A stretch of 61,026 bases of DNA from Candidatus Magasanikiibacteriota bacterium (GCA_041666745.1 JBAYGI010000002.1:102291-163316); one strand, 5' to 3'. Counted from the first letter of the stretch, positions 6,521-61,026 are shown. Program-made: numbers and translations. Notes: generated by a model not told the origin, from the sequence alone.

Positions 6521-7818
6521 ACATACATATTAGTCAAATAAAAAATTTTTTACTTTTGTTGTTATTATTTGTTTTGCCTTGGCAAACTAGGTTGATTTAC
6601 CAAACCGCGTATTTGGGTAATGATTTTTGGGAGTATGGCAGTTTGTCTTTGTATGGCACCGAAATTTTGTTAGGCGTTATTATTTTATTATTTTTGGTTG
6701 ACAAAATTCGTACCGGTTTTCATGATCTTTTCATTACACATTTTGACAAAAAACGTTTAGCGATAATAGTGGCTGGTTTTTTAGTTATTCTTTCGTTGTA
6801 TTATTTTTCTAGCGCCAACCATGCCGTTACTTGGCAATATTTGAATTGGTTAATATATGGAGCTTGCTTGTTTTTTATTATTTTGGAAAGTCGTTTGAGT
6901 TTTAAAAAATTATCACTATGTATTTGGGCAGGGGGATTGTTTCAAGCGGTTTTGGGAATATGGCAATTTTTTAGTCAATATATTTCCGCCAACAAATGGT
7001 TGGGTATGGCGGTGCAAGACCCGCGTCAGCTGGGAGTGGCCGTGGTAGAATTTGGAGATGAACGTTGGCTACGTGCTTATGGCGCGTTTGGTTGGCCAAA
7101 TTCTTTGGGGATATATTTGGCTGTAGTTTTTGTTTTGGGGGTAATTTTAATTTGTCATTCCCGCGAAAGCGGGAATCTAACAGAAAAAACAGATCCCCGT
7201 TTTCACGGGGATGACATATTGTTGATTGGACAAATAATAATTTTGTCCGGATTATTTCTGTCTTTCGCTCGCGGAGCATGGCTGGCAGTGGCCGTCGGTT
7301 TGTGTATTTTGGGCTTTAAAAAATATAAGGAAAAAACTTTTTGGCAACAAGTCGGTATTTGTGGGGTAACTTTTTTGATGTTATTGATTATCTTTAAACC
7401 ATTGGTTTTTTCCCGATTGGATTTTCAAAATCGTTTAGAAAAAATATCTATTTCACAGCGTGTGAATCAATGGTCGGAATTTCAACAAGTTTGGTCTAAA
7501 AATTATCTAGTTGGCACCGGTCCGGGCAATTACACAGCCGTTTTACGCAACCTTTATCCAAAATATTTTGTCGGAGATTTAAAACCGGTACATAATATAT
7601 TTTTGTTGTTTATAGCTGAATGGGGGTTGATTGGAGTAATTTTATTATCAGTATTTTTGTTTTACAGCAAAAAAATATTAGATTGGTCATTTGCTCCATC
7701 GATAGTTCTATTAGTTGCCGGTTTGTTTGATCACTGGAGTTTGAGCACATTTACCGGCTTGATGTTTTTTTGTGTGATTATTGGTTTGTCGGTAAAGCAA
7801 TTGTATGACTGTAAATAA
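6517..7818 (+). CDS. O-antigen ligase (Wzy_C)-like polytopic membrane protein
   Basis: More than 10 hydrophobic helices and a LSFARGAWLAVAVG motif. Start ATG 6517 is preferred because it overlaps the upstream stop as ATGA. Confidence 0.6.
   Translation: MNIHISQIKNFLLLLLLFVLPWQTRLIYQTAYLGNDFWEYGSLSLYGTEILLGVIILLFLVDKIRTGFHDLFITHFDKKRLAIIVAGFLVILSLYYFSSANHAVTWQYLNWLIYGACLFFIILESRLSFKKLSLCIWAGGLFQAVLGIWQFFSQYISANKWLGMAVQDPRQLGVAVVEFGDERWLRAYGAFGWPNSLGIYLAVVFVLGVILICHSRESGNLTEKTDPRFHGDDILLIGQIIILSGLFLSFARGAWLAVAVGLCILGFKKYKEKTFWQQVGICGVTFLMLLIIFKPLVFSRLDFQNRLEKISISQRVNQWSEFQQVWSKNYLVGTGPGNYTAVLRNLYPKYFVGDLKPVHNIFLLFIAEWGLIGVILLSVFLFYSKKILDWSFAPSIVLLVAGLFDHWSLSTFTGLMFFCVIIGLSVKQLYDCK
7154..7215. 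repeat. Two family C hairpin elements in inverted orientation, in frame inside the CDS
   Basis: GTCATTCCCGCGAAAGCGGGAATC (7154-7177) and GATCCCCGTTTTCACGGGGATGAC (7192-7215). Together they encode HSRESGNLTEKTDPRFHGDD. Confidence 0.85.
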
Positions 7819-11063: not shown

Positions 11064-11155
11064 GTTTGGTGGTAGGCCTTTTGGCGGGTTATGAGCCGAG
11101 GCTCATCCCTGAACTCCTCGCGGAGTGAGGAAAGCCAAAAGGCCTACCACCAAAC
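11064..11155. repeat. Family A structured palindromic element, copy A1 (forward)
   Basis: Perfect 21-bp outer stem GTTTGGTGGTAGGCCTTTTGG / CCAAAAGGCCTACCACCAAAC encloses the core GCGGGTTATGAGCCGAGGCTCATCC and a second hairpin ACTCC-TCGC-GGAGT. Confidence 0.85.
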
Positions 11156-14907: not shown

Positions 14908-15007
14908 TTACAGCCGTGGTAGATTGTTTTGAGCTTTTTTCGACCGCGAGGTCGAAAGGATGAGCCTCGGCTCATAACCCGCTCAAAATAATCTACCACG
15001 GCTGTAA
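14908..15007. repeat. Family A element, copy A2 (reverse orientation)
   Basis: Perfect 18-bp outer stem TTACAGCCGTGGTAGATT / AATCTACCACGGCTGTAA. Core GGATGAGCCTCGGCTCATAACCCGC. Second hairpin CGACC-GCGA-GGTCG. Confidence 0.85.
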
Positions 15008-15008
15008 A

Positions 15009-15623
15009 GTGCAATTTATGAATGTAATGTATGAGTACAATCTAGGTGTAATTACTTCCGAGATTTTGAACGGTAGGGTTTTGGTTTTTCCTACGGAGAC
15101 TTCTTATGGTATGGGGTGTGATGCTACCAATCAAGAATCGGTGGATAAGATTTTTAAAATAAAAGGGCGAGTGGAGGATAAACCGCTTTTGATCGTCGTG
15201 GATAGTATTGTCAGTGCCAAAAAATATTTGCGTTGGAATAAGACATTAGAAAAACTGGCACAAAAATATTGGCCGGGACCACTCACAATAGTGGGGGAAT
15301 ATGTCGGCGGTAATTTGGCCAAGGGTGTGGTAGGAAAAGACAACACAATTGCCGTGCGGGTGTCAAATTATTTATTTCTAAAATCAGTCACTCAAAAAAT
15401 TCAACGTCCGCTGGTCGCTACTTCCGCCAATTTAGCCGGCGCGCCAGCCTTGTTTAATCCCGAAGAAATTATAAAAGTTTTTAAAGACCAAACCGACCAA
15501 CCGGATATTATTTTGAATTTTGGTATTTTACCAATTTTGTCAGCCACAACTCTAGTAGGCGTAGTTGATAATAAAATAAAATTACTGAGACAAGGAAACC
15601 TAGTTATCAATACAAAAGAATGA
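15009..15623 (+). CDS. tsaC: L-threonylcarbamoyladenylate synthase (TsaC/YrdC/Sua5 family)
   Basis: VFPTETSYGMGCDA and SANLAGAP motifs. The start is uncertain (GTG 15009 or ATG 15018/15027). Confidence 0.85.
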   Translation: MQFMNVMYEYNLGVITSEILNGRVLVFPTETSYGMGCDATNQESVDKIFKIKGRVEDKPLLIVVDSIVSAKKYLRWNKTLEKLAQKYWPGPLTIVGEYVGGNLAKGVVGKDNTIAVRVSNYLFLKSVTQKIQRPLVATSANLAGAPALFNPEEIIKVFKDQTDQPDIILNFGILPILSATTLVGVVDNKIKLLRQGNLVINTKE

Positions 15624-15710
15624 GACATTTGGTTGATTTGAGCGGGTTATGAGCCGAGGCTCATCCTTTCAGCCTCGCGGCTGAAAAAAGCGAAAACAAC
15701 CAATTGTCTC
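15622..15710. repeat. Family A element, copy A3 (forward)
   Basis: Outer stem GAGACATTTGGTTG / CAACCAATTGTCTC with one mismatch. Core GCGGGTTATGAGCCGAGGCTCATCC. Second hairpin CAGCC-TCGC-GGCTG. Overlaps the tsaC stop codon. Confidence 0.85.
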
Positions 15711-15738
15711 ATGATGAAAACACAAGATAAACTTTTTT

Positions 15739-17289: not shown

Positions 17290-20200
17290 ATGTTTTTTCA
17301 AAAAATAAAAAAATTGACGATTGGTTTTGTGTTATCTGTTTTAATTTTTTCGTCAGTCGTTGGTTTTTTTATTTCTGCTGAACCGGCCAACGCCCAAGGT
17401 CCGGTACTTATATCCGGCGATATTCCAAGACAAGCCAGTGCTATCAAGGACATGATCAAAAACGGCTGGAAAATAGCCGTGCTCAATGCCGCTCAACAAG
17501 CCGTGTCTTATTTTTTACGTAAAGTTGCCTACGATACTGCCATGTATATTGCGTCCGGCAATAAAGGACAGGGTGCGTTTGTGCAAAGCAAAGGTTTTGG
17601 AGATTATTTGGCTTCAGCCGGTTCGGAGGCTGCCGGTACGGCGATCGAACAGCTCGGCAAAGGATTTGGATTGGATCTCTGTAAAATTCCTGATGTAAAA
17701 ATAGATTTAGCCTTGCGTATTGGCTTGCATTACAATTATGCTTTGGGAAGTCAACCTAGAAAGCCAGCCTGTAATTTGACAACCTTTGCCCAAAATTGGG
17801 GGAGTGACGCTTGGGCTAGTAAATACGGCGGTGGAAGCGGTCCTGGTGGTTTTGATGTCAACAAAGTTTTCAATAAAACTCTTGTGGTTGATGATGCTCC
17901 GATGGGGGTAGTACTAAAAACTACCGAAAAAATAGATCGTTTGGTAGTTAGACAAACCAATGCCGCTCAAGCTGACCGTGAAGAAGGCGCCGGTTTCAAA
18001 CCAGCAACTCGGTTGGTTTCCGGTGATATAAAAACACCTAGTCAAACAATCAAAAAACAGGCAGAAGACAATTCTCCTAGTGAACAAAACAAAAAAAGTC
18101 AGGCGCAAGTAGCGGCGGCGATGGGTTCGGGAGCGTATGAAATTCTTCCATCGACTTTGTCCTTGTTTTTAAATACTTTGGCCGGGCAGATGTTGAAAAA
18201 TTTTAAAGAAAACGGCATGTTGCCAGGTGGTCTTTGTGTGGGAAGTTTTGGTGGACCGGATTGTAAAGGCGGTCAAGGTAGTCAAGCTACAAATTTTGAG
18301 GCCGGTACATCAGTCAGTGGGCGTGCCGCCGCCGAAGCGACCTTTAGTGACTTTTTGACTATCAAATTGGACACATTATCTACTTATGATATTTTGGCTG
18401 AATTAAACAGCTGTGAATCTCACGGCCTATACAACTGTCGCGCTGATGGTGGAATAATATTGGCGTTACAACAAGCCAAACAAGAAGATCCGTTCACCAT
18501 CCAAGAAGCTATGGACAAAGGTTGGTTAAAACGCGAGTGGAAATTGATTCCACCTTCACGCGTGGCCGACAACCAAATCGGAAATGATGCTGATAAAAAT
18601 TGTTACAACAACAATTATTGCTACAGCAATCTTCAAGTATTACGTCAGTTGCGTATTTTCCCATTGGGCATGGAAATTGCCGCCAAAAATAGTGATCCGG
18701 ATCGCCCATGGACATTGAAAGAAGTTGTTGATGGTTTTTATAAATGTAATTACGAAAAAACTCCGGACGGTACAGTAGTTGGTATAAACTATGATCCGGA
18801 AAATTATCCACTTTGTCATTTGGTGGATCCAAACTGGGTGATCAAATTGGAACAAACTCGTTGTGATGCCAAAGCGTACAGTTCAGTGCCATTGAGCGCG
18901 GATGTGCCGGATCGTGTAAACGAATGTGTGGATCTCAAGACTTGTATCGGTGTGGACAAAGATAAAAATTGTGTCGGTTATGGTAATTGTGTGCGTGAAA
19001 AAAATGTATGGAAATTTGACGCAAAATCTTGTGATGCGCGCAATGTCACTTGTCGGGCTTTTACAGATAGTGCCGGCAAATCCGTTGCGTATTTGTATCG
19101 CACATTGGATACCGGTGATTGCAATCAGGATACGGCCGGTTGTACCGCATATAGTTTGGAGCAAGACAATGCTGGTTGGGAACCATTGGCAAAAACAGGT
19201 TATGGTAGTTATTCTACTGGTATTTATTTAAATAAAAATGTTTCGACCGCCTGTTCGGCCAATTCAGCTGGTTGTACGGCTCTCAAATTACCGGTTGATA
19301 CTGATCCAAATCAAAATAATTTTTATCCGATAAAAAAAGCGCCGGATTATTTGAATTGTTATGATAAAAATGCTGACAGAACAGATGGCATTCAATGGCC
19401 AAAAACATTTTCAGATATTTACCAATTAAAACCACGTCCGGAGTGTAGAGATTACGCTCAAGTTTGTATTGCCGACGAAGTTGGTTGCGCCACCTACAAA
19501 CTGGCCGATGATCCCGAGGCTCTACCTATTCCGGGTAAATTTACCCCGACAGAAACAGCTAGTGGTGTTCTTCAAAATTGGAACGATCAATGTAATCAAA
19601 AATGTGCCGGTTATGCGGCTTATCGTGAAATGCCGTCGAATTATTCTGCCGGAAATCCATTGGCATATATTATTCCACCATCCAAATACAACAACGGTGA
19701 ATCCGGAGCGACTTGCGGTGAAGATGAAGTTGGTTGCAGTAGTTTCACCAATATGGCCACTACTGAAGGTGGCGGTGAAAAGGTAGAAAATTTTACCGAT
19801 TTACGCGCTTGTATAAAACCGGATGTAAACAAACAAAAGAATTTTTATACTTATGAAGGTTCGACACTCGGTGGTTACCAACTGCAATCATATACTTTGG
19901 AAAAAGATGTAGACGGCGGACCAAAGACTGTATTTAACACACCACAAGACAAAATCGATGCCGGTCTATACAAATGTAATGCTGATCTATACAAACTTCA
20001 CCAAGAAGATACCGAATGTCATCAATTCAACGATGACAGAGGCAACATCTACTACGCGATGATGTCGCATACTATCGTAGTATCGACAGATTGCACACCG
20101 TATCGTCTCAACAGTACGGAATTAGCCGGTCCGAAGCAATGTTTTAATAATGGTGAATATAACGAAAAAGATGGCGCCTGCTATTACAACGGTCTGCCAT

Positions 20201-23200
20201 CAGGGGTAAAAGTAAGCACTCAAAATAGCGTGTCTTGTGATGCAAAAGTGGTATCTTGTCGTGCCTACAAAGGGAATAATGGTAATAATATCAAGACGGT
20301 AAATATTGCCGGAAACAATCCGGTGGAAACTTTTGAAAATCAATCGGATGTTACCGCTGCCAATGGCTGGAGAACAACTGACGGCAATATCAACTGGTCA
20401 GCCGAATCCACTCGCGCCGGTGAACATTCATTGGGGTATGTTGGGGGTGGAAAAGTATATCAAACTGTTGATCTCAAACATGACAGTCTGGATTTGCAGG
20501 GTAACACTAGTTATAGTTTGAGTTTTTGGGCAAAAGGCAATGGTGTGAATGTAGATGTGTCGATGACGGATGTCAAAAATAATATTGTTACCGCCGGCAC
20601 AATTACCGCCAACACTTCATGGCAACAGTTCACCTTCAATTTGGTTGAATTGCAATCTTCAGGCACCAGTACTATCAATTTCAAATTAAATAAAAGCGGT
20701 AATTTATTCTTGGATAATATTCGTTTGACCAAAGTGTCCGATTTGTTGTATTTGGTAAAAGATTCTTTGAAAGTTGATCCGATTTGTGATGACAACCAAA
20801 CAGACAATTTGCCGGGCGTGGCTTTGGGTTGTAATGCTTACGAAGGACCGTTAAATAGTAACGGAGACAATCTTTTCTTCCTTACCAATTTCAGTTTCTT
20901 GTGTCGTGAGGGAGCGATTGGTTGTACGGCATTTATGGATACATATAACAAAATCACCGACAGTGGTCCACGCGCATACAATGTTAGTCTGATCGGAAAA
21001 ACCGGTACAGAAGTCATCGCGCAAATCGGTGGTGATTCATACAAATGTCAAATAGAACAAGGCAAGACAAGTTGTTTTGTAAATGTCAAAGGACACACCA
21101 AAGATGAGATAGAAAAAGCCACTGGCGCAAAAGCAGAATTTGGAAATTCTACTTATTATATCCCAGCCGACACGGACAGTGCCGACCCGATTTATCTAGT
21201 AGCCAAAAATGACCAAGTGGACTATACCTGTAATTCTGCGGACTTGGGTTGTACTTATGCTGGTATGCAAAAAAGCACACCTAGTGGTGATCAATTTACA
21301 ACAACAACCATAAAACTAGATCCAGCTCAACTGGAAACCGGTGGTTCTGATGCCAGTGGCAATCCATTGCCGGTAATATTATGTCAACAACAGGCATTGG
21401 GTTGTGGTGTTTTTGGTTCCAGTCTAGGTGACGCGTATTTCAAAGATCCGGCTGTGATTGGCGCCAAAATCTGTGCATATAATCCAAGTGTCACAAAAAA
21501 TAACAACAAAGTAAGTGGTTGGTTTTGGAAAGGCGTCGGTGTGTGCGGTAATACCTCCAAAACTTGTTCTGAAGATAGCGATTGCACAGATCCGAAATCC
21601 AACACCTGTATAGACAAAGACGTCCAACCATGTTATCCGGATTATCTCCAAAATGGAAACAGCTACGGCCTCTGGTCATACGGCAACAAAGATAAATACA
21701 ACAATTTCGTCGGTGAATGTCCTGCTGAGGAAGATGCCTGTACCGAATTTGTCGATCGCAACGACAATGACAAGTCATATCCATTTATCAAAGACAGCAA
21801 AATATCCGAAGGGGATTGTGGTGGAATGGTGAGCCAAAAAGCCGGCTGTGCTATTTTTGATCAAACCGACAATCCAAATAAATTTTGGAACACCGCCGCG
21901 ACATATAGACTAAGTGATAACTCTGCCCCAGGTCAATTCAGAGATATGTCCAAAGGCACAAAAGTCCAACCACAGAATATGGGGGACAAAAACAATGCGA
22001 ATGTTATAATCAAGGTAAAAAGAGATAGAGAGTGCGCGGAGTGGTTGCAGTGTAGATCGCCTCATCCGGTTATAGATGAAAGTTCAGGTGTGTGGAAACA
22101 ATCTTGTCAAATGATAGGGCGTTGTAATAAGTTGGAAACTGGAGTAGGGAGTGATTCTTCCATGTGTGGAAATTTCAATGACAACAAACATGAATTTTCC
22201 AATCAAATATTAACTGAAAAATTGTACCAAACCAGAGATGTATCATGGGAAGGTATGGATTTGTCAGGTTTTTCCGTTTTGAATACCTATCCGTTGGAAG
22301 AAATGACACAAGTTAATATTGGTAGTGGTTCTTCAGAAAATTGGGTTTTAGCCAAAACTGTGCCTTGCGGAGGAAATAATTGTGCTTATGCCAGTCAGCC
22401 AAAACTTTTTGTATGTAAGGATGATAAATTGCCATGTGGCGCTTCTAAAGAAGGTAAATGTATCAATGGAAATTGCATTAAAAATATTGCTGAAAATGAA
22501 GAAAAAAACCAAGCCCAACAAACCAGTGTGGTAGTAACCGATTTTATAGGAGATTCTTGTCGCGCTTATCCGGAAAAAGACTCACCATTCCCAAATATTC
22601 CGTCAGTAGGTCAGAGCAAGAATTTTTCTACTGTTAATATTTGCAGTGAGGGTAATAAAACTTCCGGAACAGATGCGTATAAATGCGAGTGTGATTATTT
22701 AAAAGTGACTTATCAGAGCATAATAAAATATTTTAATTTAGATAATCCTAATAGTGTTAAACCTATAAGTGGTTCAGAGTCCGGCAAGGCTCCAGTCGGT
22801 ATTTGTTTGGGTGGAGATTCGAATGGTGCAAAATGCGCGTCGGATAGTGAATGTCTAAATAAATCAGGAAACCCAGATGGATCTTGTCAAATGCAGGATC
22901 GTGAATCCAAAGTTATCGGTTGGCATGGGTTTTGTATAGAACAGGATAAGTCTAGGGCTGTAAACGCTGACAACTCGCAGTACCCTTGTTTGACATGGTA
23001 TCCAGTAGACAATGTTTTGGGTACACCGGACATAAACGGCAATCATGTTGAGGCCGGATATGTTCCACCAGATAAAACTGACCCATTCTATTGTTTGCAG
23101 GCAAATATGTATGTACAACCAAAGGTATTTAGAGTATGTAAAAAATCACCTGATTTAGTATGTGATAATGAAAGTTGCGCAGATAAATATAAGACTACAT

Positions 23201-25224
23201 ATGATTCAAATAATAAAGTTGTTTATAACCCTTGTCCGGAGGGATATCATACTGGTGTTAATAATGGTGTTTATCGTATTGATTGTGGAAATCCTAGCGA
23301 TGATCCGGATGTAATGACGGACTGTACTTCGGGAGGGTGGAGTACAAACGGTTGTAATATTAGATGTGAATTAGATAGTCCAAGTGATGATTTGTGGATT
23401 TTAAAATCAAAGTATGCCGTCAAAGGCTTGGTTGATTATGCTTACAAATCATCTTTGTATAAACAACAAGCAGTCGCCTGTTCTTTTGTTGTAGAAATGA
23501 AAGACTCGATAGCCTACACGAATCGTTTATGGGAAAAAAGTGGTTATACTATTGATGCTTCCACTACAGCCTATCAAAACAAACTAAATTATAAATTTGA
23601 TAGTTCAAAAGCACCATTTGGTTATGCTGCTAATCCGGGAAATAAATTTTTGCCAGTTCCTTGGTGTTCAAGTCCATCTAGCGATGTGTTTGCTATGCCT
23701 AAATCAGATAATGGTTGTGAAAATAATTATTTACCAAGCGATAATGATAATTTTGGTCGTCCTTATTCCGGTTGGCAGTTTGGATCAAATGGTTCTGCTT
23801 GTGCAACCAGTGCAGATTGCAATCAACAAGTGAATTGTGGCAATAAAAGTAAATGCATGCGCCAATGTACAACAGATAGTGATTGTGTAGGAATGGAAAT
23901 ACCAACAGACTCCAGTGGATCCCCTATATTTCCTCCTAAAAAACCATCATGCAATTTATCTACGCACTATTGCTACGGTATTGCTGTATCAGTGGGACCA
24001 GTAGATCCATGTCTTTCGTCAGTAGGAGAACAATTAGAAAATGCCACGTGTGGAGAAAAAAATAAATTAAATTTTTGTGTTGGTACGTGTGGTAATAACA
24101 GCAACCAAACGTGTGCTACAACTGAAGATTGCTACGCACAGCTATGTTCCAACGGCTCTTGTTTGAATAAAGATCAAAAAGAGTCAGATGACAATAATGC
24201 TCTCAAAGATTACAACGAAGAAACCGTTAAAGGTGCGTGGAGTCTTTTGAGTCAATTGTTTGTCACCTTAAAAGATGATGCTGCTAAATTTTTTAAAGAT
24301 AAAGGATTTCAAGATTCAAAAGCGGATTTTATTGCTACAAAAAATTTAACCAGCAAGAGTGGTGTGTCTAAAGTTCCAAAAGTTCATCCAGTAGGTGATT
24401 GTGTTGGCAGTGAACGATGTAAAGAAATAAACACGAATGCTATTTCAATAAATGGCAAATATGACCAGAATGTAATACTTACAAATAGTCCGGCATATGT
24501 AGAGACGAAATTTTTTGCTTATGCTGACAAGGATCAGATGCCGATAAAACAGATAACCGTGGATTGGAACGACGACACCACAGCGGTTAAATTAGGTGGT
24601 CCAAATAGTTTTTATCGCAATCGAAGAGGTACGGTAAATGGCCAGTGCGCCACTTCTATTAATTTTGAAGGAAAGAAGTGTGTTGCACCTCTGTTTGATA
24701 TGGAAAAAACAGATAGATTTTTTTCAGACATGTCAGTGGCAGTGGTGGGAGGTAAACAATTGTATGATCTCCACGCTTGGAATGAAGTAAATTGTGATAC
24801 CGACAAAGATTGTCAAAATCTTTATCAATGTCAAAGCAATGATTTCGCTTCTAATTTCGGTCATGTTCTAAGTAGGTCTTGTGATAATAGTTATTATAAT
24901 TTTGGACATTATTATATTTGTGATAAAAATAGTGACAAATATGATCCGACATGCTCTGTAGCCACAGAAAAAGAGAAACAGTATTTCTCTGATGGATGTT
25001 GTGTGTTCCAACCAAAAGTACAAGTATTAGACAATTGGGGGTGGTGCAATGGGAAGTGTCCGGGAGGGGCAGATGGGACGGATGGGTGTTATAATGGAAA
25101 AGATAATAATGGCAAACCAATTTTTGAATGTAGTAATTTCATTAGTAATAATCCTTACACCAGTTTTGGTTCCAAAGTATTAGTAGCACCAAACAATAGT
25201 GTTGTTAACAATTTAACTTTTTAG
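17290..25224 (+). CDS. Giant (2644 aa) secreted cysteine-rich protein with an internal CBM/jelly-roll-like domain
   Basis: Signal/anchor sequence ending AEPANAQG. At least 13 copies of a G/S-C-x-x-[YF]-type motif. Six C-x4-[DE]-C motifs. Around aa 1010-1150 (nt 20317-20740) the sequence resembles CBM_4_9 (YSLSFWAKG...FLDNIRL). Confidence 0.85.
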   Translation: MFFQKIKKLTIGFVLSVLIFSSVVGFFISAEPANAQGPVLISGDIPRQASAIKDMIKNGWKIAVLNAAQQAVSYFLRKVAYDTAMYIASGNKGQGAFVQSKGFGDYLASAGSEAAGTAIEQLGKGFGLDLCKIPDVKIDLALRIGLHYNYALGSQPRKPACNLTTFAQNWGSDAWASKYGGGSGPGGFDVNKVFNKTLVVDDAPMGVVLKTTEKIDRLVVRQTNAAQADREEGAGFKPATRLVSGDIKTPSQTIKKQAEDNSPSEQNKKSQAQVAAAMGSGAYEILPSTLSLFLNTLAGQMLKNFKENGMLPGGLCVGSFGGPDCKGGQGSQATNFEAGTSVSGRAAAEATFSDFLTIKLDTLSTYDILAELNSCESHGLYNCRADGGIILALQQAKQEDPFTIQEAMDKGWLKREWKLIPPSRVADNQIGNDADKNCYNNNYCYSNLQVLRQLRIFPLGMEIAAKNSDPDRPWTLKEVVDGFYKCNYEKTPDGTVVGINYDPENYPLCHLVDPNWVIKLEQTRCDAKAYSSVPLSADVPDRVNECVDLKTCIGVDKDKNCVGYGNCVREKNVWKFDAKSCDARNVTCRAFTDSAGKSVAYLYRTLDTGDCNQDTAGCTAYSLEQDNAGWEPLAKTGYGSYSTGIYLNKNVSTACSANSAGCTALKLPVDTDPNQNNFYPIKKAPDYLNCYDKNADRTDGIQWPKTFSDIYQLKPRPECRDYAQVCIADEVGCATYKLADDPEALPIPGKFTPTETASGVLQNWNDQCNQKCAGYAAYREMPSNYSAGNPLAYIIPPSKYNNGESGATCGEDEVGCSSFTNMATTEGGGEKVENFTDLRACIKPDVNKQKNFYTYEGSTLGGYQLQSYTLEKDVDGGPKTVFNTPQDKIDAGLYKCNADLYKLHQEDTECHQFNDDRGNIYYAMMSHTIVVSTDCTPYRLNSTELAGPKQCFNNGEYNEKDGACYYNGLPSGVKVSTQNSVSCDAKVVSCRAYKGNNGNNIKTVNIAGNNPVETFENQSDVTAANGWRTTDGNINWSAESTRAGEHSLGYVGGGKVYQTVDLKHDSLDLQGNTSYSLSFWAKGNGVNVDVSMTDVKNNIVTAGTITANTSWQQFTFNLVELQSSGTSTINFKLNKSGNLFLDNIRLTKVSDLLYLVKDSLKVDPICDDNQTDNLPGVALGCNAYEGPLNSNGDNLFFLTNFSFLCREGAIGCTAFMDTYNKITDSGPRAYNVSLIGKTGTEVIAQIGGDSYKCQIEQGKTSCFVNVKGHTKDEIEKATGAKAEFGNSTYYIPADTDSADPIYLVAKNDQVDYTCNSADLGCTYAGMQKSTPSGDQFTTTTIKLDPAQLETGGSDASGNPLPVILCQQQALGCGVFGSSLGDAYFKDPAVIGAKICAYNPSVTKNNNKVSGWFWKGVGVCGNTSKTCSEDSDCTDPKSNTCIDKDVQPCYPDYLQNGNSYGLWSYGNKDKYNNFVGECPAEEDACTEFVDRNDNDKSYPFIKDSKISEGDCGGMVSQKAGCAIFDQTDNPNKFWNTAATYRLSDNSAPGQFRDMSKGTKVQPQNMGDKNNANVIIKVKRDRECAEWLQCRSPHPVIDESSGVWKQSCQMIGRCNKLETGVGSDSSMCGNFNDNKHEFSNQILTEKLYQTRDVSWEGMDLSGFSVLNTYPLEEMTQVNIGSGSSENWVLAKTVPCGGNNCAYASQPKLFVCKDDKLPCGASKEGKCINGNCIKNIAENEEKNQAQQTSVVVTDFIGDSCRAYPEKDSPFPNIPSVGQSKNFSTVNICSEGNKTSGTDAYKCECDYLKVTYQSIIKYFNLDNPNSVKPISGSESGKAPVGICLGGDSNGAKCASDSECLNKSGNPDGSCQMQDRESKVIGWHGFCIEQDKSRAVNADNSQYPCLTWYPVDNVLGTPDINGNHVEAGYVPPDKTDPFYCLQANMYVQPKVFRVCKKSPDLVCDNESCADKYKTTYDSNNKVVYNPCPEGYHTGVNNGVYRIDCGNPSDDPDVMTDCTSGGWSTNGCNIRCELDSPSDDLWILKSKYAVKGLVDYAYKSSLYKQQAVACSFVVEMKDSIAYTNRLWEKSGYTIDASTTAYQNKLNYKFDSSKAPFGYAANPGNKFLPVPWCSSPSSDVFAMPKSDNGCENNYLPSDNDNFGRPYSGWQFGSNGSACATSADCNQQVNCGNKSKCMRQCTTDSDCVGMEIPTDSSGSPIFPPKKPSCNLSTHYCYGIAVSVGPVDPCLSSVGEQLENATCGEKNKLNFCVGTCGNNSNQTCATTEDCYAQLCSNGSCLNKDQKESDDNNALKDYNEETVKGAWSLLSQLFVTLKDDAAKFFKDKGFQDSKADFIATKNLTSKSGVSKVPKVHPVGDCVGSERCKEINTNAISINGKYDQNVILTNSPAYVETKFFAYADKDQMPIKQITVDWNDDTTAVKLGGPNSFYRNRRGTVNGQCATSINFEGKKCVAPLFDMEKTDRFFSDMSVAVVGGKQLYDLHAWNEVNCDTDKDCQNLYQCQSNDFASNFGHVLSRSCDNSYYNFGHYYICDKNSDKYDPTCSVATEKEKQYFSDGCCVFQPKVQVLDNWGWCNGKCPGGADGTDGCYNGKDNNGKPIFECSNFISNNPYTSFGSKVLVAPNNSVVNNLTF

Positions 25225-26021: not shown

Positions 26022-26091
26022 CGGTGGTATGTTTGTTTGTCTAGATTCCCGTTTTCACAGGAATGACCAGTCGCAAACAAACATTCCACCG
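26022..26091. repeat. Family C hairpin nested inside an 18-bp outer inverted repeat
   Basis: CGGTGGTATGTTTGTTTG ... GATTCCCGTTTTCACAGGAATGAC ... CAAACAAACATTCCACCG. Sits at the right edge of the GC-rich island. Confidence 0.8.
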
Positions 26092-26235: not shown

Positions 26236-26311
26236 TTTTAGCTTGTTTTAGGTAAATATACCTATATACTGACATATTTTATACCTGTGGACAAGTGGGT
26301 GGTGGATAACT
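26236..26311 (+). repeat. Direct repeat copy 1 (60 bp identical plus a 16-bp diverged tail)
   Basis: TTTTAGCTTGTTTTAGGTAAATATACCTATATACTGACATATTTTATACCTGTGGACAAG is identical to 27852-27911. Both tails end in TGGATAACT. Confidence 0.95.
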
Positions 26312-26328
26312 CCCCAACCGTGCTGGTT

Positions 26329-26355
26329 AATTTGTGGATTGTACATCCACAAATT
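26329..26355. promoter_or_regulatory. Palindromic operator-like site AATTTGTGGAT-TGTAC-ATCCACAAATT abutting a TTGACA box
   Basis: Perfect 11-bp arms. TTGACA at 26356-26361 follows, with a 17-nt spacer to TTTAAT. Confidence 0.55.
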
Positions 26356-26424
26356 TTGACAAATTTATGGATATGTGTTTTAATATATTTAATTCAATAT
26401 TATTTATTTAACCTAATTTTACGT

Positions 26425-27558
26425 ATGATAAAAAGATTTTATAATGATTTAGACAAATGGATAAAACCAGGCAAAGCCCTAATTATTTATGGTCCACGCC
26501 GAGCCGGCAAAACTACGTTACTACGTAATTTTTTGGCTACTACCAAATATAAATATAAATTGGATTCAGGTGATAATATTTCAACACAACAAATATTAAG
26601 CTCGCGTGATTTTAAAACAATTTTAGGCTATGTGGAGGGTTATGAATTATTGGCAATAGATGAAGCGCAAAATATTCCTGATATTGGCTTTGGATTAAAA
26701 ATACTTACAGACGAACGACCGGATTTGCGCATTATTGCCACGGGGTCATCTTCTTTTGATTTATCCAGACAAGTGGGCGAGCCACTTACCGGTAGAAAGA
26801 ATACGGTTATTTTATATCCTTTTGCGCAAATGGAACTTTTGAATAAGTATAATCATTTTGAATTAAAACAAAACTTAGCGGATTTTCTAATTTTTGGATC
26901 TTATCCGGAAGTAGTTATGACGAAAAACAGAATTGATAAAATCACTCTTTTAGAAGAGTTGATGAATTCTTACTTATTGAAAGATATATTGTCTTTAGAA
27001 AAAGTAAAAGGATCAAAAGTGTTGCTCGATTTAGTCAAGTTGTTGGCTTTTCAAATCGGCAATGAAGTATCTCTAAACGAAATGGCAAGTCAGTTGAGTT
27101 TGGATGTAAAAACAGTTGCGCGTTATTTGGATTTATTAGAAAAAAGTTTTGTGATTATTTCTTTGGGTGGTTATGGTAGTAACTTACGAAAAGAGGTCAG
27201 TACTAAAAAGAAATATTATTTTTTGGATACTGGTATTCGCAACGTGGTGATTTCCCAATTTAACAGTTTAGAGGATCGCAATGATATTGGGTTTTTGTGG
27301 GAAAATTTCATAGCGGTTGAAAGATTGAAAAATAGATCTTATAATAATATTTATGGCGGTTATTATTTTTGGAGAACTTACGAACAGGAAGAAATTGATT
27401 TAGTGGAAGATCGTGATGGAAAATTGTTTGGCAGTGAATGCAAATGGTCAGCTCAGAAAGGCGAAAAAACTTTTGCCCCTAAAACTTGGACAAAAGAATA
27501 TCCAAAGGCCGGTTTCAAAGTGATTACCCCTGAAAATTATTTGGATTTTATTGCTTAA
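26425..27558 (+). CDS. AAA+ ATPase of the DUF4143 / COG1373 type
   Basis: Walker A IIYGPRRAGKTTLL, Walker B LLAIDEAQ and a C-terminal EIDLVE restriction-endonuclease-like tail. The listed ORF start 26287 was trimmed to ATG 26425. Confidence 0.8.
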   Translation: MIKRFYNDLDKWIKPGKALIIYGPRRAGKTTLLRNFLATTKYKYKLDSGDNISTQQILSSRDFKTILGYVEGYELLAIDEAQNIPDIGFGLKILTDERPDLRIIATGSSSFDLSRQVGEPLTGRKNTVILYPFAQMELLNKYNHFELKQNLADFLIFGSYPEVVMTKNRIDKITLLEELMNSYLLKDILSLEKVKGSKVLLDLVKLLAFQIGNEVSLNEMASQLSLDVKTVARYLDLLEKSFVIISLGGYGSNLRKEVSTKKKYYFLDTGIRNVVISQFNSLEDRNDIGFLWENFIAVERLKNRSYNNIYGGYYFWRTYEQEEIDLVEDRDGKLFGSECKWSAQKGEKTFAPKTWTKEYPKAGFKVITPENYLDFIA

Positions 27559-27851: not shown

Positions 27852-27927
27852 TTTTAGCTTGTTTTAGGTAAATATACCTATATACTGACATATTTTATAC
27901 CTGTGGACAAGGTTGTTGTGGATAACT
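27852..27927 (+). repeat. Direct repeat copy 2
   Basis: Identical 60 bp to 26236-26295. Contains TGTGGACAA and a perfect TGTGGATAA (the reverse of TTATCCACA) at 27917-27925. Confidence 0.95.
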
Positions 27928-36281: not shown

Positions 36282-36285
36282 AATA

Positions 36286-36309
36286 GATTCCCGCTTTCGC
36301 GGGAATGAC
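36286..36309. repeat. Family C hairpin element
   Basis: GATTCCCGCTTTCGCGGGAATGAC, located in the 37-nt gap between the PrgI-like gene and the next gene. Confidence 0.85.
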
Positions 36310-41838: not shown

Positions 41839-41929
41839 GGAGAGGTGGCTGAGTGGTCTAAAGCGGCACACTGCTAATGTGTTGTACGGCGTTAAAACCG
41901 TACCGTGGGTTCAAATCCCACCCTCTCCG
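41839..41929 (+). tRNA. tRNA-Ser (anticodon GCU)
   Basis: Acceptor stem GGAGAGG/CCTCTCC, anticodon arm GCACA-CTGCTAA-TGTGT, long variable arm and T arm GGGTTCAAATCCC. CCA is not encoded. Confidence 0.9.
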
Positions 41930-41934
41930 CTTTC

Positions 41935-41969
41935 ACCTCGCCATAGCTCCGAAAGGAGCGACGGCGGGT
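41935..41969. repeat. Family D GC-rich hairpin element, copy D1
   Basis: ACCTCGCC-ATAGCTCC-GAAA-GGAGCGAC-GGCGGGT. Confidence 0.6.
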
Positions 41970-42038
41970 CGTTAGTTTTACCACCAACCCAGTTTGCTTC
42001 TTAAGTCTGTGGCGAGGTTTCAGCGAGACAATGTCCGT

Positions 42039-42071
42039 CCTCGCTTCGCCGAAGCTTTAGCGAAGGCGGGT
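42039..42071. repeat. Family D element, copy D2
   Basis: CCTCGCTTCGCCGAAGCTTTAGCGAAGGCGGGT. It is near-identical to the reverse complement of the trmD copy at 60235-60267. Confidence 0.75.
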
Positions 42072-42108
42072 ATGTATGAACAGATCATAATTATTTAAGA
42101 AGGGAATT

Positions 42109-42345
42109 ATGTATTATGTTTATGGTTTAAAATGTAAGGATGGTTTTTATATTGGCTGTACTTCAGATCTAAAAGAAAGATATTCTAGACATCAAAAAGG
42201 TCAAGTGCCAGCTACGACCAAACGTTTGCCAGTAGAACTTGTTGTTTACTTTGCCTTCAAAGACAAGTATTTGGCATTTAATTTTGAAAGATATTTAAAA
42301 TCCGGTTCTGGAAGGGTGTTTATCAAAAAACATCTTAGGATTTGA
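42109..42345 (+). CDS. Stand-alone GIY-YIG nuclease-domain protein
   Basis: YYVYGLKCKDGFYIGCTSDLKERYSRHQKG. Confidence 0.8.
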   Translation: MYYVYGLKCKDGFYIGCTSDLKERYSRHQKGQVPATTKRLPVELVVYFAFKDKYLAFNFERYLKSGSGRVFIKKHLRI

Positions 42346-53916: not shown

Positions 53917-53928
53917 AATTCAAAAAAC

Positions 53929-54033
53929 AAAAACACCAGTAACAACCACCTTTTCGCTTTTTTTGCCCGCGAGGGCAAAAGGATGAGCCTCGGGCTCATA
54001 ACCCGCTCAAAGGTAATTGTTACTGGTGTTTTT
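53929..54033. repeat. Family A element, copy A4 (reverse orientation)
   Basis: Perfect 17-bp outer stem AAAAACACCAGTAACAA / TTGTTACTGGTGTTTTT. Core GGATGAGCCTCGGGCTCATAACCCGC. Second hairpin TGCCC-GCGA-GGGCA. Confidence 0.85.
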
Positions 54034-54041
54034 GTTTTTTT

Positions 54042-54090
54042 GTCATTCCGAGCACCCGCTTCGCGAGTATAAACTCCGCCGAGGAATCCC
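54042..54090. repeat. Family C-prime element with an enlarged interior
   Basis: GTCATTCCGAG...CCGAGGAATCCC has the same termini as the smc copy. Confidence 0.7.
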
Positions 54091-54098
54091 TTATTAAG

Positions 54099-54178: not shown

Positions 54179-54247
54179 ACACAATTATAATGGACGAATT
54201 TGCGAATTTTCTCCAACGTGGTATTATATAGACAATCATTTTTTTGT

Positions 54248-54556
54248 ATGCGTTTAGAAAAATATTCCATTGATAAACTCAAAAAAGAGCTTAAAAAAAT
54301 TGTAAGTCAATATTTGAATTTAAAGAATTATCGTCTTTTTTTCTTTGGATCAAGAGTTACAGGCAAAGGAAATAATGTTTCGGATATAGATGTTGGTATT
54401 GAAGGCCACGAAGAAATTCCGCTCGAAATTATGTCTAAAATAAAAGAAGATGTGGAAAATTTACCGATTTTGTATAAAATGGAAATTATGGATTTCAAAA
54501 GAGCATCGCGAGATTTTTTGACAGTAGCTTTGCAAAATATTGAAGAAATTAAATAA
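54248..54556 (+). CDS. Minimal nucleotidyltransferase (MNT, antitoxin-type)
   Basis: FFFGSRVTGKGNNVSDIDVGIEG. Start trimmed to ATG 54248. Confidence 0.8.
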   Translation: MRLEKYSIDKLKKELKKIVSQYLNLKNYRLFFFGSRVTGKGNNVSDIDVGIEGHEEIPLEIMSKIKEDVENLPILYKMEIMDFKRASRDFLTVALQNIEEIK

Positions 54557-54571
54557 ATAACAAACACTTGT

Positions 54572-54949
54572 ATGTCAAAACTGGAAGCCCAATTGATCCA
54601 AATGGAAAACGCGTTGAATAAATTAAAAGAGGTTTTGGCTTTGCCAGAGACAGAAATAGTGCGCGATTCTGCGATTCAACGTTTTGAATTTACTTTGGAC
54701 TTAACATGGAAAACAACAAAAACGTATTTGGAAGAGAAGGAAGGTGTCGTGTGTGTTTCTCCAAAAGAATGTTTTAGGGAAGCGTTTAGGCAGGGTTTAA
54801 TAAATTATGACAGCGAGTGGATTACTATGGTTGATTTACGCAATGAAACGGTTCATACATACAATGAAGAAAATGCGCAAAAAATTTATCTACAGTTATC
54901 TTCAACAATTGGAAAATTTGAAGAGTTACTAAATAAATTAAAGCAGTAA
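54572..54949 (+). CDS. HI0074-family nucleotidyltransferase substrate-binding (HEPN) protein
   Basis: RDSAIQRFEFTLDLTWKTTKTYL and RNETVHTYNEE (the R-x4-H HEPN motif). Confidence 0.8.
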   Translation: MSKLEAQLIQMENALNKLKEVLALPETEIVRDSAIQRFEFTLDLTWKTTKTYLEEKEGVVCVSPKECFREAFRQGLINYDSEWITMVDLRNETVHTYNEENAQKIYLQLSSTIGKFEELLNKLKQ

Positions 54950-55062: not shown

Positions 55063-58000
55063 ATGTATCCTATGAAATATTTTTCATTAGGCAAAAAACT
55101 ATTGCTATTAGGCAGTTTTGTTTTGCTTGGGGTTTTGTTAAATGGTGGTAGCGCAAGTGCCCAGACAGGGCCTTGTTATTGGGTAGCTGGTTCGGCTGCA
55201 AATTATAGTAGTACTACAGCATGGTTGGATGGTGCGGGTGACGCATGTGTTCCAGAAATAGCACCAGGCTTAGTGTTCAAAGCCGCTTCTTCTACCGCGG
55301 ATATAACTTTTGATGTTAGCACCACAACTCCGAATATGAGTTTTGATAGTACTTATTCTGGTGAAGCGTATATTGCGGCTGGCATAACAGTCACTTCTAC
55401 TGGCTCAATCACTTTCACAGGTACAGGAACTAACGGTTTTAATATACTTGCTGGATCCACTTTGAATGTTGCCTCTAATCTTGGTGTGTCTTCTACTTTT
55501 GTTATAGCTAGTACCGGTGTATTGAATTTGGGTGGAAATTTGACGGTATCTGGAACACTAAGTGCTGCTTTAGGTACTGCGACGGTTAATTTTACTAGTA
55601 CGACTGCAACCACTCAAACTATTGGTGGTCCAGGAAGTATTACGTTTGGAACTTTGAATGTAAATGGTAGTACTGTAACCCTCGGTTCATCGGTTACGAC
55701 TACAGGTGATGTGACAGTGGCGAGTGGAAAGACACTTGCTTTGGCAGGAAATAGTTTGGTGGCGTCTGGGAATATTACCAACACAGGTGGTACGATTACT
55801 CAAACCGGCGGTGTGGTGACTATGACTGGTGCAAGTAAAACTTTGGGTGGGGTAGGTGGTACTACAAATTTATATGATTTAGTTGTAAGTAGTACGCTTG
55901 TTAGCTTGGCTGGTAATGTTACTACCACAGGTGCTTTGACAGTTGCTAGTGCCAGTTCGGTTTTGGCTTTAGGCACAAAGAATCTAGTCGTCAGTAGTAG
56001 TTTTGCCGGTTTGGGTACGGTCACTCAAACATCCGGATCTGTTACAATGATCGGAGAGGGGAATTTGGGAGGAACAAGTTTGACAATGGGTATTTCTGAT
56101 TTGATAATTACCGGTACTACGACTTTAGCGGGTACTGTGACTGCTTCTACTACAGTTGTGTCTGGGGTATTGAATGGTGGTGACGCAAAAACACTGTCTG
56201 TTTCTGGTTCCGGCACCCCATTATCTATAACCGGTACCTTTAATCCGGGAACCTCCAATGTAAATTTTACAAATGTCAGTGTTAATATACCGACAGCTAC
56301 TTATTATTCCTTGACTTATAATTGTGCTGGTTATGGTTGTGGCACAGCGACTTTAATTGGTAACGTTACAAGTACCAATTTGTATAATAGTATGGGAACT
56401 TTAGCTTTTGGAAATTATAATGTTTTTGTAAGCACAACTTTCCAAAATTACGATATTATTACTCAATCTGGTGGCAGTACAACTTTGAATGGATCCGCTG
56501 TAAGCTTAAATCCAGGCAACACGGCAACAACAACATTATATAATTTAATTATCAGTTCAAATGTTACCAGTTCAAATACAGGCACTCTGACCGTCAATAA
56601 TTTAACTGTTGATACAGGCAAAGAACTGATGCTGACTGCCGGTTTAACTATTGATATCACAGGCACAGGTACGCCGTTTGTTAACAATGGTACTTTGGCT
56701 GGTACATCAACTATTAAATATTCGGGCGCAACAGTATACATCGCTTCTTCTACTTATTATAACTTGACGGTTGATAGTGCTTCGTCTACTTTGTTGGATA
56801 CTACTAACATAAACAATGCGTTAATAATTAATTCTGGAAAAACATTGAATATAGGCGGTTTTGCACTTAATGTGACAGGCAATGCGACAAATTCAGGTAA
56901 TTTTATTATAAATGGCGGGTCAGGAAATGGCACAGCTGATATAACAGGTGATTTTACTGCGACTGGTGATGTAAATATTATTGCCGAAGGAGAATTGTTA
57001 GTGGGCGCTACTTCTACTTTATCATCCACAACATTAACCAGTGGTAATTTTTCTACAAAGAACCTTTATGTTAGTAATAGTGGTCATGTTGTAGATAACG
57101 GCACAGGAACTATAACTATTTTAGGCAGTGGTGTGTTAAATGTTGGGACAGGCGCCAACTTGAGCGCTTATGATTTATCCGTTGGTACTTCATCTGGCAC
57201 TGTGACAACCACAGGCAATGTTACAACCACCCATGTCTTGACTATTGGGAGTGCTGGAACTTTAAATGCTGGTAGCGGTGTCTTTACATTCACCGCCACT
57301 AGTACACCTTTTGTAATGGCAGGTGGAACATTTAATGCAAATACCTCAGAATTTGTTTATGCTGGTGCCACAGCCAACGTTGCTTCAACTACTTATTACA
57401 ATTTGACAGTTAACGGAAGTCAGTCTTTGGTTGGAAATGTGACTACGACAAATGTTTTGACTATCGGAACCGGTGGTACATTAGATGCTGGTGCATACAC
57501 CATCCGATTAACCGGCACAGGTACCCCATTGGTAAACAGTGGTACATTCACCGCCTCAACTTCCGCGGTCATATTCTCCGGTACCACATCCAATGTTCCT
57601 GCCGCCACTTACTATGATTTGACAACCAATGGTACTACTCAAACACTTGTCGGTAATGTTACCTCCACTCACGTCTTGACAAATGGAAGTGGTACATTAG
57701 ATGCTGGTGCATACACCATCCGATTAACCGGCACAGGTACCCCATTGGTAAACAGTGGTACATTCACCGCCTCAACTTCCGCGGTCATATTCTCCGGTGC
57801 CACCTCCAACGTTCCTGCCGCCACATATTATGATTTGAAAACAAATGGTTCTCAAACATTGACAGGAAGTGTTACGTCAACTCACTTTTTGACCATCGGT
57901 GCAGCAGGTACATTAAATGCCGGCGCGCATAGTATCCGATTTACAGGAACAGGTTTGCCGTTAGTTATAACTACTGGAGGCACTTTCACCGCCTCAACTT

Positions 58001-60812: not shown

Positions 60813-60836
60813 AGATTCCCGCATTTGCGAGAATGA
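60813..60836. repeat. Family C hairpin element
   Basis: GATTCCCGCATTTGCGAGAATGAC. Confidence 0.75.
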
Positions 60837-61026
60837 CAACGAGTTGATACTGGAAAGAGAAAAGAGTAAGTCAAATTGGCTTCCTCTTTTTTCTTTCAAC
60901 AGTGAAAGAAAATGAACCTTGACAATACAAACGTGACAAAGACCATATTATATACAATTTAATTTGTATAAAATTAAACTGTCTATTCAACAACAAATAT
61001 ATTAAATAGTTCGGATTTATTTCCGA

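Follow-up and report, generated by a model that had tools for sequence, protein, structure and literature searches.

The described repeats closest to the element reported here are REPINs, bacterial MITEs (transposable elements of the miniature inverted-repeat class) and the pneumococcal SPRITE (PMC3116915, PMC10969869). REPINs are doublets of repetitive extragenic palindromic (REP) sequences that form hairpins and are mobilised by RAYT transposases (PMC3116915). The present element, Family A, was encountered in a 61,026-nt stretch of DNA from a Candidatus Magasanikiibacteriota bacterium (this whole stretch is called the window) and is in none of these named families. It is a previously undescribed palindromic repeat family, non-coding, multi-copy and about 90-120 nt long, and is so far confined to one Candidatus Magasanikbacteria clade. 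Bacteria of the Candidate Phyla Radiation (CPR) have tiny, tightly packed genomes, and to our knowledge almost nothing is known about their non-coding DNA.

The window was searched as a whole, and genome and metagenome sequence collections were used for the survey of the family. The core GGGTTATGAGCC-GA-GGCTCATCC (as a 23-mer, GGGTTATGAGCCNNGGCTCATCC) has exact matches at 11086-11108 (+), 14958-14980 (-) and 15644-15666 (+), and a fourth core, with the loop shortened to 3 nt (CGA), lies at 53981-54001 (-). Dinucleotide shuffles of the window gave zero core matches. All four copies of the original prediction, here called c1 to c4, were thus found in place, with covariance-model scores of 60, 89.9, 92.5 and 93.6 bits, respectively. 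A filter-free covariance-model search revealed no fifth copy in the window, where the density is about 1 copy per 15 kb (4 in 61 kb).

Copy c1 (11064-11155, +) lies in the groES-groEL spacer and has the core subtype 'CTGA...GAGGAAAGCC'. The 5' arm of its outer helix P1 (11064-11085, +) is complementary at 22 of 22 positions to the 3' arm (11134-11155, +), which was recognised by this complementarity and by folding. Between the arms are the hairpins P2 (11086-11108, +; GGG, a TT bulge, then ATGAGCC-GA-GGCTCAT-CC) and P3 (11113-11126, +; ACTCC-TCGC-GGAGT). Copy c2 (14908-15007, -; arms 14908-14934 and 14981-15007) is located in the prfB-tsaC spacer with its core antisense to the genes, and c3 (15620-15712, +; arms about 15620-15636 and 15697-15712) in the tsaC-rsmA spacer. 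Copy c4 (53922-54040, -), which is of the terminator type, follows a KH-domain (KhpA-like) gene, and its arms extend outward into an A-tract and a T-tract. The original prediction had the copies start 0-13 nt past a stop codon; this holds for c1 (13 nt), c2 (5 nt) and c4 (5-12 nt), and the 5' arm of c3 overlaps the tsaC stop codon.

Aligned in one orientation, c1-c4 have TTTGAGC/GGC-GGGTTATGAGCC(C)GAGGCTCATCC in common, followed 3' of GAGGCTCATCC by a second hairpin with a TCGC loop and an A-rich run ending in GC. Each of the four cores measures 58-60 nt and consists of P2 and P3, enclosed by the long arm helix P1. The P3 stems in the window are ACTCC/GGAGT, CGACC/GGTCG, CAGCC/GGCTG and TGCCC/GGGCA. 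The outer stems, expected to be 14-21 bp long and perfectly or nearly perfectly paired, do pair, but measure about 18 to 30-34 bp and are not all free of mismatches (22 bp without a mismatch; 27 bp with a single A.C; about 18 bp with a few mismatches; 30-34 bp with two G.T). On either strand, each of c1-c4 folds into a three-way junction whose helices are the outer stem, P2 and P3, with Z-scores of -6.3 to -12.0 and 0 of 200 shuffles as good.

The wider search that had been proposed together with a covariance model yielded many further copies. An exact-pattern scan of one genome per species gave 52 loci, 51 of which are from about ten Candidatus Magasanikbacteria metagenome-assembled genomes (MAGs) with up to about 14 copies per MAG. 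The metagenome scan, for which the pattern left the interior of P2 free, gave at least 106 loci. After removal of duplicates, at least 139 distinct copies remained among the genome and metagenome loci listed. The consensus is TTTGAGC GGG TT ATGAGCC RA GGCTCAT CC TTT N1N2N3CC TCGC GGN3'N2'N1' AAA AAAGC GAAA, in which the segment between the P3 3' strand GGNNN and the terminal GAAA is AAAAAAGC. Even between species in which TsaC identity is no more than 70-77%, this core hardly varies.

Viral contigs, phages and plasmids gave zero matches to Family A, and an origin from any of these was rejected. A known RNA family was rejected as well, hammerhead, twister-sister and other three-way-junction ribozymes included: at the gathering score Rfam returned only tRNA-Ser in the window, at E<=10 c2 and c3 gave just spurious long-hairpin matches to plant miRNA models, and a check by eye of both strands showed a misfit to the hammerhead core (CUGANGA...GAAA). 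A match in Rhodovulum (L045) was discarded as a chance hit within GC-rich sequence that has no P3. Two MAGs with many Family A copies, CAYZHG01 (loci L011, L014, L017 and others) and CAZXEV01 (L005, L019, L021, L031 and others), are titled 'uncultured Gammaproteobacteria'. They have the Magasanikbacteria gene order groES-groEL-prfB-tsaC-rsmA and a TsaC 77% identical to that of the window, and the label is probably wrong.

Pair statistics were computed by RNAalifold and pair counts on 106 distinct sequences. In P2 and P3, 97.7% of the cells are standard pairs, and 11 of the 17 pairs have changed on both sides (160 cells). None of 500 shuffles equalled the observed pairing, and slid controls paired at 45-60%. 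The compensatory stem changes seen in the window are therefore real. P3 varies in three adjacent hypervariable base pairs, for which 12 triplets were found (TGC, CAC, CGC and CAA being the commonest); its loop, its two closing C-G pairs and its TTT/AAA base are near-fixed. The invariance claimed for the TCGC loop and for the 7-bp hairpin holds in the window, but not family-wide. Among 138 copies, 128 keep the TCGC loop, and P2 covaries in diverged copies, with the variants ATGAGCC, ATGCGCC, ATGAGGCC, ATGAAGCC and ATGAAAC each accompanied by the matching 3' strand. Fixed in P2 are the ATG...CAT ends, the TT bulge and the GG/CC base. The P3 triplet as a guide or barcode for arms or flanks was rejected, its mutual information being at most 0.2 bit at any arm position.

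The original prediction regarded such covariation as the signature of selection on structure. The covariation stands; as proof of selection it does not, since template switching during replication can generate compensatory, Watson-Crick covariation (PMC8794818, PMC8604942). Pairs other than Watson-Crick are few in P2 and P3 (about 7 in 2,000 cells, with 4 G.T and 2 A.C). Given this and the compensated differences that span several bases, a mutational origin of the covariation has to be taken seriously. For the fixed parts of the core, selection must be acting, because they are unchanged across the species with divergent TsaC and because no small-scale inversion of the P2 or P3 loop occurs among the collected copies.

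The arms were measured by strand-symmetric anchored alignment. They form a median of 24 Watson-Crick pairs at about 89% complementarity, and 3 of 133 arm pairs are perfect. That the outer stems are unique to each copy is true only in part. Their outer parts differ between copies; the inner 12-14 bp are conserved by subfamily and belong to the repeat, so in this part the stems are a conserved longer repeat, against the original prediction. Examples of such subfamilies are (A/C)ATAATTAC-N-TTTGAGC...GCGAAAA-N-GTAATTAT, ...TTGTCTTTGAGC...GCGAAAAGATAA... and the GTTTGGTGGTAG(A/G) type, which includes c1 and c2. There are 48 pairs of copies with unrelated flanks that have at least 80% identity over 20 arm positions. 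The paralogs L010, L015 and L023 in MAG JBAYIZ have ACACCAC-NNNN-ATAATTAC in common, the outer ACACCAC included, the sole difference between them being a compensated 4-bp patch. Orthologous arms diverge by 20-60% yet stay complementary.

Presence and absence at orthologous sites show that Family A behaves as an inserted element, in agreement with the mobility proposed earlier. The gene order groES-groEL-(small exporter)-prfB-tsaC-rsmA is conserved among relatives, and the empty sites for c1-c3 are spacers of 1-29 nt in which the hairpin is absent. Locus L056 is empty at all three sites, with spacers of 29, 16 and 7 nt and no hairpin. The c1 site is also empty in L057 and in the P0017 and P0020 contigs, with a groES-groEL spacing of 20 nt, and is filled in L047 (860-946), with the core flipped. 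Copy c2 has an ortholog in L028 and its site is empty in L056, L029, L031 and L047. Orthologs of c3 are present in L029, L031, L047, L117 and, with a flipped core, L152; the site is empty in L056 and in L028 and L053, where tsaC and rsmA overlap. For c4 there is an ortholog in L051 and there are core-less relatives, L164-L167. A systematic flank search added about ten loci with a hairpin-free empty state. At sites of the c1-c3 type, the unit that is gained or lost is the whole hairpin including its arms.

The overlap between filled and empty sites is at most 2-3 nt and ambiguous (TTA at c2), and non-palindromic bases are additionally present in the insertions. In c2, L074 and L030 the arms have no similarity to the flanks of the corresponding empty sites, and an origin of the arms by inverted duplication of the local target was rejected. 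Hypermutation was considered for L065 and L040, whose flanks are 99% identical and whose elements are very different. It was rejected too, a recombination mosaic being simpler because the end of the upstream gene also differs. The gene tsaC is bracketed by two copies in the window (14908-15712), L117 (1988-2793), L152 (846-1640) and L003 (2789-3584), and is the sole gene repeatedly flanked on both sides. The two copies are mutually inverted in the window and in L117. The double flanking is probably coincidental.

The palindrome begins at a median of 8 nt from the neighbouring stop codon (quartiles -4 and 14), and the median distance to the next start codon is 26 nt. The neighbouring genes are convergent for 35 copies, co-directional for 55 and divergent for 3. 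A T-tract follows the arms in 58 of 138 copies, and 50 of these also have an A-tract before the arms. In the window c4 has both tracts; in c1, c2 and c3 the T-tract is absent, and a simple terminator scan called none of the four copies. Both tracts are found in 25 of the 35 convergent copies versus 12 of the 55 co-directional ones (Fisher p = 6e-6). The association with terminators that had been noticed in the window is thus confirmed: the copies stand at gene 3' ends and are often terminator-like. Judged from their sequence, tract-bearing copies probably act as bidirectional intrinsic terminators, and tract-less copies within operons may simply be hairpins in the polycistronic mRNA. In c4 and L051 the palindrome mirrors the whole host T-tract TTTTTGTTTTTT (CAAAAAACAAAAACACC / GGTGTTTTTGTTTTTTG), whereas the plain terminators of relatives have only 4-5 A, which indicates that the palindrome grew outward. 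Such growth was seen only at the A/T-tract of these two copies.

Both orientations do occur, as noted originally, and flips are found in situ, but there is a strong bias. In the co-directional copies the 'forward' strand is antisense in 43 of 55 and sense in 12 (p = 3e-5); counted by ortholog cluster, the ratio is 24:3. Copies c1 and c3 have the minority orientation, and the 2:2 split in the window is atypical. The core is flipped between c1 and L047, which have the same rare core subtype and the same flanks, and between L117 and L152 at the c3 site. Further flipped ortholog pairs are L085/L034, L137/L017 and L046/L082, with a flank identity of 94-97%. In L085/L034 the arms are collinear and everything between ATAATTAC and GTAATTAT is reversed. 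Frequent flipping together with a strong bias argues for selection on orientation, most likely at the mRNA level.

The two strands differ in their features. On the mRNA-sense strand, P3 has a GCGA loop (of the GNRA type) and P2 a CUCG, CUUG or UUCG loop, and folding of the core only prefers this strand by 115:14. On the opposite strand the inner arms have G.T and not A.C (57:4 at positions 6-12; 64:9 over distinct patterns), and these G.T pairs adjoin tandem G.A and G.U at the base of P2. Folding of the whole element prefers this opposite strand by 93:33.

The explanation we favour, as somewhat probable, is that Family A is an interspersed, non-autonomous element, palindromic and of the REP, MITE or SPRITE kind, which is tolerated or co-opted as a terminator or intercistronic hairpin and subject to template switching. 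In its single-stranded form, either mRNA or single-stranded DNA (ssDNA), it would adopt the three-way junction of P1, P2 and P3. Template switching homogenises the arms of inverted repeats, inverts the spacer and expands the repeat (PMC8604942, PMC8794818, PMC13100816). In Family A, switching between the inverted arms during replication would keep them complementary, extend the palindrome outward and invert the core. We read the covariation of the arms as largely mutational, because complementarity persists despite 20-60% divergence and because outward growth and core inversion match template switching. Purifying selection would keep the invariant parts, which are the P2 base together with the UU bulge, the two loops and the GC clamp. 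Probably these parts are recognised by a putative trans-acting protein, which could be an enzyme that mobilises the element or a protein that binds RNA. The core would also have to fold compactly, leaving the host hairpin able to work as a terminator or as a harmless hairpin in the mRNA.

Several observations weigh against this explanation. A transposase-like gene or GIY-YIG enzyme accompanying the element, as the original prediction suggested, was not found: there is no multi-copy open reading frame (ORF) family beside the copies (337 ORFs, about 1.1 Mb of loci), and of the two GIY-YIG genes in 1.15 Mb of loci neither is near a copy. Close pairs of copies enclose housekeeping ORFs: tsaC, one for an RmlD-like reductase and one for a small membrane protein. 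Comparisons of filled and empty sites show no clear target-site duplication and no sharply defined ends, and no presence/absence pair has a flank identity above about 90%, hence no recent mobility was seen. Purely selfish DNA predicts neither a near-invariant core at a TsaC identity of 70-77% nor a strong orientation bias. Template switching alone is insufficient, as it would erase the persistent G.T pairs of the inner arms, and it leaves the confinement of P3 variation to three base pairs unexplained. Finally, the strand signals conflict, with loops and bias pointing to the mRNA-sense strand and arm G.T pairs, tandem G.A and whole-element energy to the opposite one.

The loops and the bias would be expected if Family A were a host-selected cis-acting RNA domain in 3' untranslated regions (3' UTRs) or intercistronic RNA, with spread being secondary. 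The functional molecule would then be the mRNA-sense strand (the reverse complement of 'forward'), with P3 capped by a GNRA loop and P2 by one of the UUCG/CUCG/CUUG type, and its role might be protein binding, a block to 3' exonucleases or processing. Such a domain would account for a bias of 43:12 by copy and 24:3 by cluster that persists despite frequent flipping, for the 115:14 preference in core-only folding and for a P3 loop that, read on the mRNA-sense strand, is GCGA in 128 of 138 copies, with three variants keeping GNRA as GUGA. It also agrees with a core that is near-invariant between species while both helices covary, and with small inversions of the P2 and P3 loops never being seen. 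However, 12 of the 55 co-directional copies, c1 and c3 among them, have the opposite orientation at conserved sites. The mRNA-sense inner arm contains A.C mismatches, tandem U.C/C.U and C.A at the base of P2, where the opposite strand has G.U and G.A, and P2 and P3 contain hardly any G.U pairs (about 4 in 2,000 cells), an uncommon trait for an RNA family. Moreover, there is no link to a gene class, the neighbours being unrelated housekeeping genes, and many relatives are without the element at the same sites. We consider a cis-acting RNA domain of this kind rather unlikely.

Also doubtful in our view is that the core is more than a passenger and represents a new functional nucleic-acid domain, namely a strand-asymmetric three-way junction with a dedicated, putative protein partner or activity, spread by a hairpin mechanism and with an orientation that is functional. 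Candidate partners would be a factor that binds or processes RNA at mRNA 3' ends, or else a nuclease or recombinase that is specific for structure and has folded ssDNA as its substrate. The orientation of such a domain could be switched by inversion between the element's own arms.

Asymmetric hairpins mark the active strand of IS200/IS605 and REP elements. The strand-specific G.T pairs, the tandem G.A and the TT bulge of Family A resemble these hairpins, and the element might accordingly be a folded-ssDNA element: either a miniature derived from a system of the IS200/IS605 or REP/RAYT type or a recombination site that folds, with P2 and P3 as binding hairpins for a transposase or recombinase and one strand active. 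P2 and P3 pair almost strictly by Watson-Crick rules, and a need for the active strand to be on one replication template would give rise to the orientation bias. In 133 left arms, TTAC stands 10 nt from the core in about 36 and TTGA at 4 nt in 101, and REPIN hairpins likewise have compensatory changes (PMC3116915). Opposed to this is that no Y1/HUH, RAYT or transposase-like ORF is near the copies, that no RAYT gene is present within the 8-14 kb loci around them, and that no copy is split around an ORF. The REP-type tag is absent (GTAG in 13 of 133 left arms at scattered offsets, CGTC in 2 of 133) and the element has no sharply conserved ends. There is no sequence relationship between P2 and P3, in contrast to the left- and right-end hairpins of IS608 or the paired REPs of a REPIN. 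A folded-ssDNA origin appears improbable.

In the model offered by the original prediction, terminator hairpins were there first and a core module inserted specifically into their loops; on this view the module is short and the outer stem is host sequence. At the c4 site a plain intrinsic terminator stands in place of the element in the core-less L164-L167, with the T-tract TTTTGTTTT clearly homologous between filled and empty sites, and at five other terminator-type sites the relatives also have ordinary terminators (A-tract, 9-11 bp stem, 4-6 nt loop, T-tract). In terminator-type arms the outer 8-12 bp are site-specific and the inner (A/C)ATAATTAC-N-TTTGAGC is common, as this model would have it. 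However, the stems of filled and empty sites of the c4 type differ in every species and a loop remnant is not visible. A junction remnant or mismatch between host stem and arm is absent, L085 pairing over 29 bp with one mismatch near the core, and the paralogs L010, L015 and L023 of one genome share the outer-arm ACACCAC. As c1-c3 and about ten other sites are free of a hairpin when empty and the whole hairpin is gained or lost there, loop insertion fails for three of the four window copies, could apply just at terminator-type sites such as c4, where the element may instead have taken the terminator's place, and is given little credence by us as a general account.

Other features of the window and the surveyed loci may be mentioned. 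The GIY-YIG enzyme, rejected as mobiliser of Family A, seems tied rather to a separate GTCATTCC repeat. A second small palindromic repeat, GTCATTCCCGCGAAAGCGGGAATC and variants, is present in the window at 7155-7178, 7191-7215, 26043-26067, 36285-36309, 60813-60837 and about 54044-54095, and the copy at 26043-26067 is enclosed by a unique 23-bp outer stem (26017-26039/26074-26096). In MAG JAVHSM01 (L055, 4895-4975) three units of the GTCATTCCCGCGAAAGCGGGAATC type occupy the prfB-tsaC spacer, which in the window is filled by Family A, and the GIY-YIG ORF of L055 starts inside one such unit. In the window (41839-42345) tRNA-Ser(GCT) is followed by an inverted repeat (41928-41946/42007-42025) and a 78-aa GIY-YIG ORF (42109-42345), with no Family A copy within 11 kb. 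Directly downstream of c4 is a toxin-antitoxin pair of the MNT/HepT type (nucleotidyltransferase and NTase-substrate-binding/HepT-like; 54200-54949). A 76-nt direct repeat with 95% identity (26236-26311 and 27852-27927) brackets a DUF4143/AAA_14 ATPase gene (26287-27558); it might represent a promoter or leader that was duplicated, or the two ends of a gene cassette that was inserted. The intergenic region 738-967 contains large imperfect inverted repeats (49 nt at 80% and 23 nt at 91%). Two giant ORFs are found at 17290-25224 (2,644 aa) and 55063-59904 (1,613 aa), the latter with tandem units of about 216-219 nt at 57214-58340.

Family A shows that CPR genomes still carry a structured interspersed repeat. 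It is unusual in that its architecture is the reverse of that of REPINs and MITEs and in that it appears to supply or decorate terminators, and it offers a clean natural case of arm homogenisation, palindrome growth and spacer inversion. A caution for RNA discovery is that the dynamics of inverted repeats may mimic RNA covariation. Should the core bind a protein, an uncultured phylum would have yielded a new module for recognition between protein and RNA or ssDNA. Strains of Magasanikbacteria could also be typed conveniently by means of the element.

Compared with known systems, Family A resembles REPs and REPINs in being short, non-coding and extragenic, with many copies per genome, a position at gene 3' ends and restriction to a lineage, and it shares with REPINs a whole unit of about 100 nt that forms one long hairpin with compensatory changes. 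REPINs, however, have conserved ends and a variable centre, whereas in Family A the centre is conserved and the ends are variable; there is no GTAG/CGTC tag and no RAYT beside the copies, and the centre consists of two unrelated hairpins instead of a spacer. Bacterial MITEs (Correia/NEMIS, Chunjie, QMITE; reviewed in PMC10969869) are similar in size, in being non-coding, in having arms that are inverted repeats and a transcript with a stable stem-loop, in their preference for intergenic regions or 3' UTRs, in presence/absence polymorphism and in being tolerated within operons. Family A differs from them in arms that are subfamily-conserved only in the inner 12-14 bp and diverge outward, in having no clear target-site duplication and no parent insertion sequence found near copies, and in that its most conserved part is internal, structured and covarying. 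As to miniatures of IS200/IS605 elements (PATE-like), P2 and P3 are sequence-unrelated, the ends are not sharp and TTAC is present in about 36 of 133 left arms.

The pneumococcal SPRITE is, like Family A, an interspersed repeat that resembles, and probably acts as, an intrinsic terminator, and about a third of Family A copies have the tracts for this. Family A differs in carrying a 58-nt two-hairpin insert as its loop and in lacking at least one tract in two thirds of the copies; the two are unrelated in sequence, and their hosts belong to different phyla. With intrinsic terminators themselves it shares a GC-richer stem base next to a T-tract, often with an A-tract mirror, and the position of the plain terminators of relatives, but its stem measures 20-35 bp versus 9-11 bp and its 'loop' is a 58-nt three-way junction. 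Inverted repeats shaped by template switching (PMC8794818, PMC8604942, PMC13100816, PMC5941160) show the same arm homogenisation, spacer inversion and outward growth. These are the product of a mutational process, however, and not an element family, and the process does not explain the core conservation, copy number and orientation bias of Family A. Family A has size, location, hairpin form and gain/loss behaviour in common with REPINs, bacterial MITEs and SPRITE; without a REP tag, a clear target duplication or a known partner gene, it is set apart from them by a conserved, structured centre that flips.

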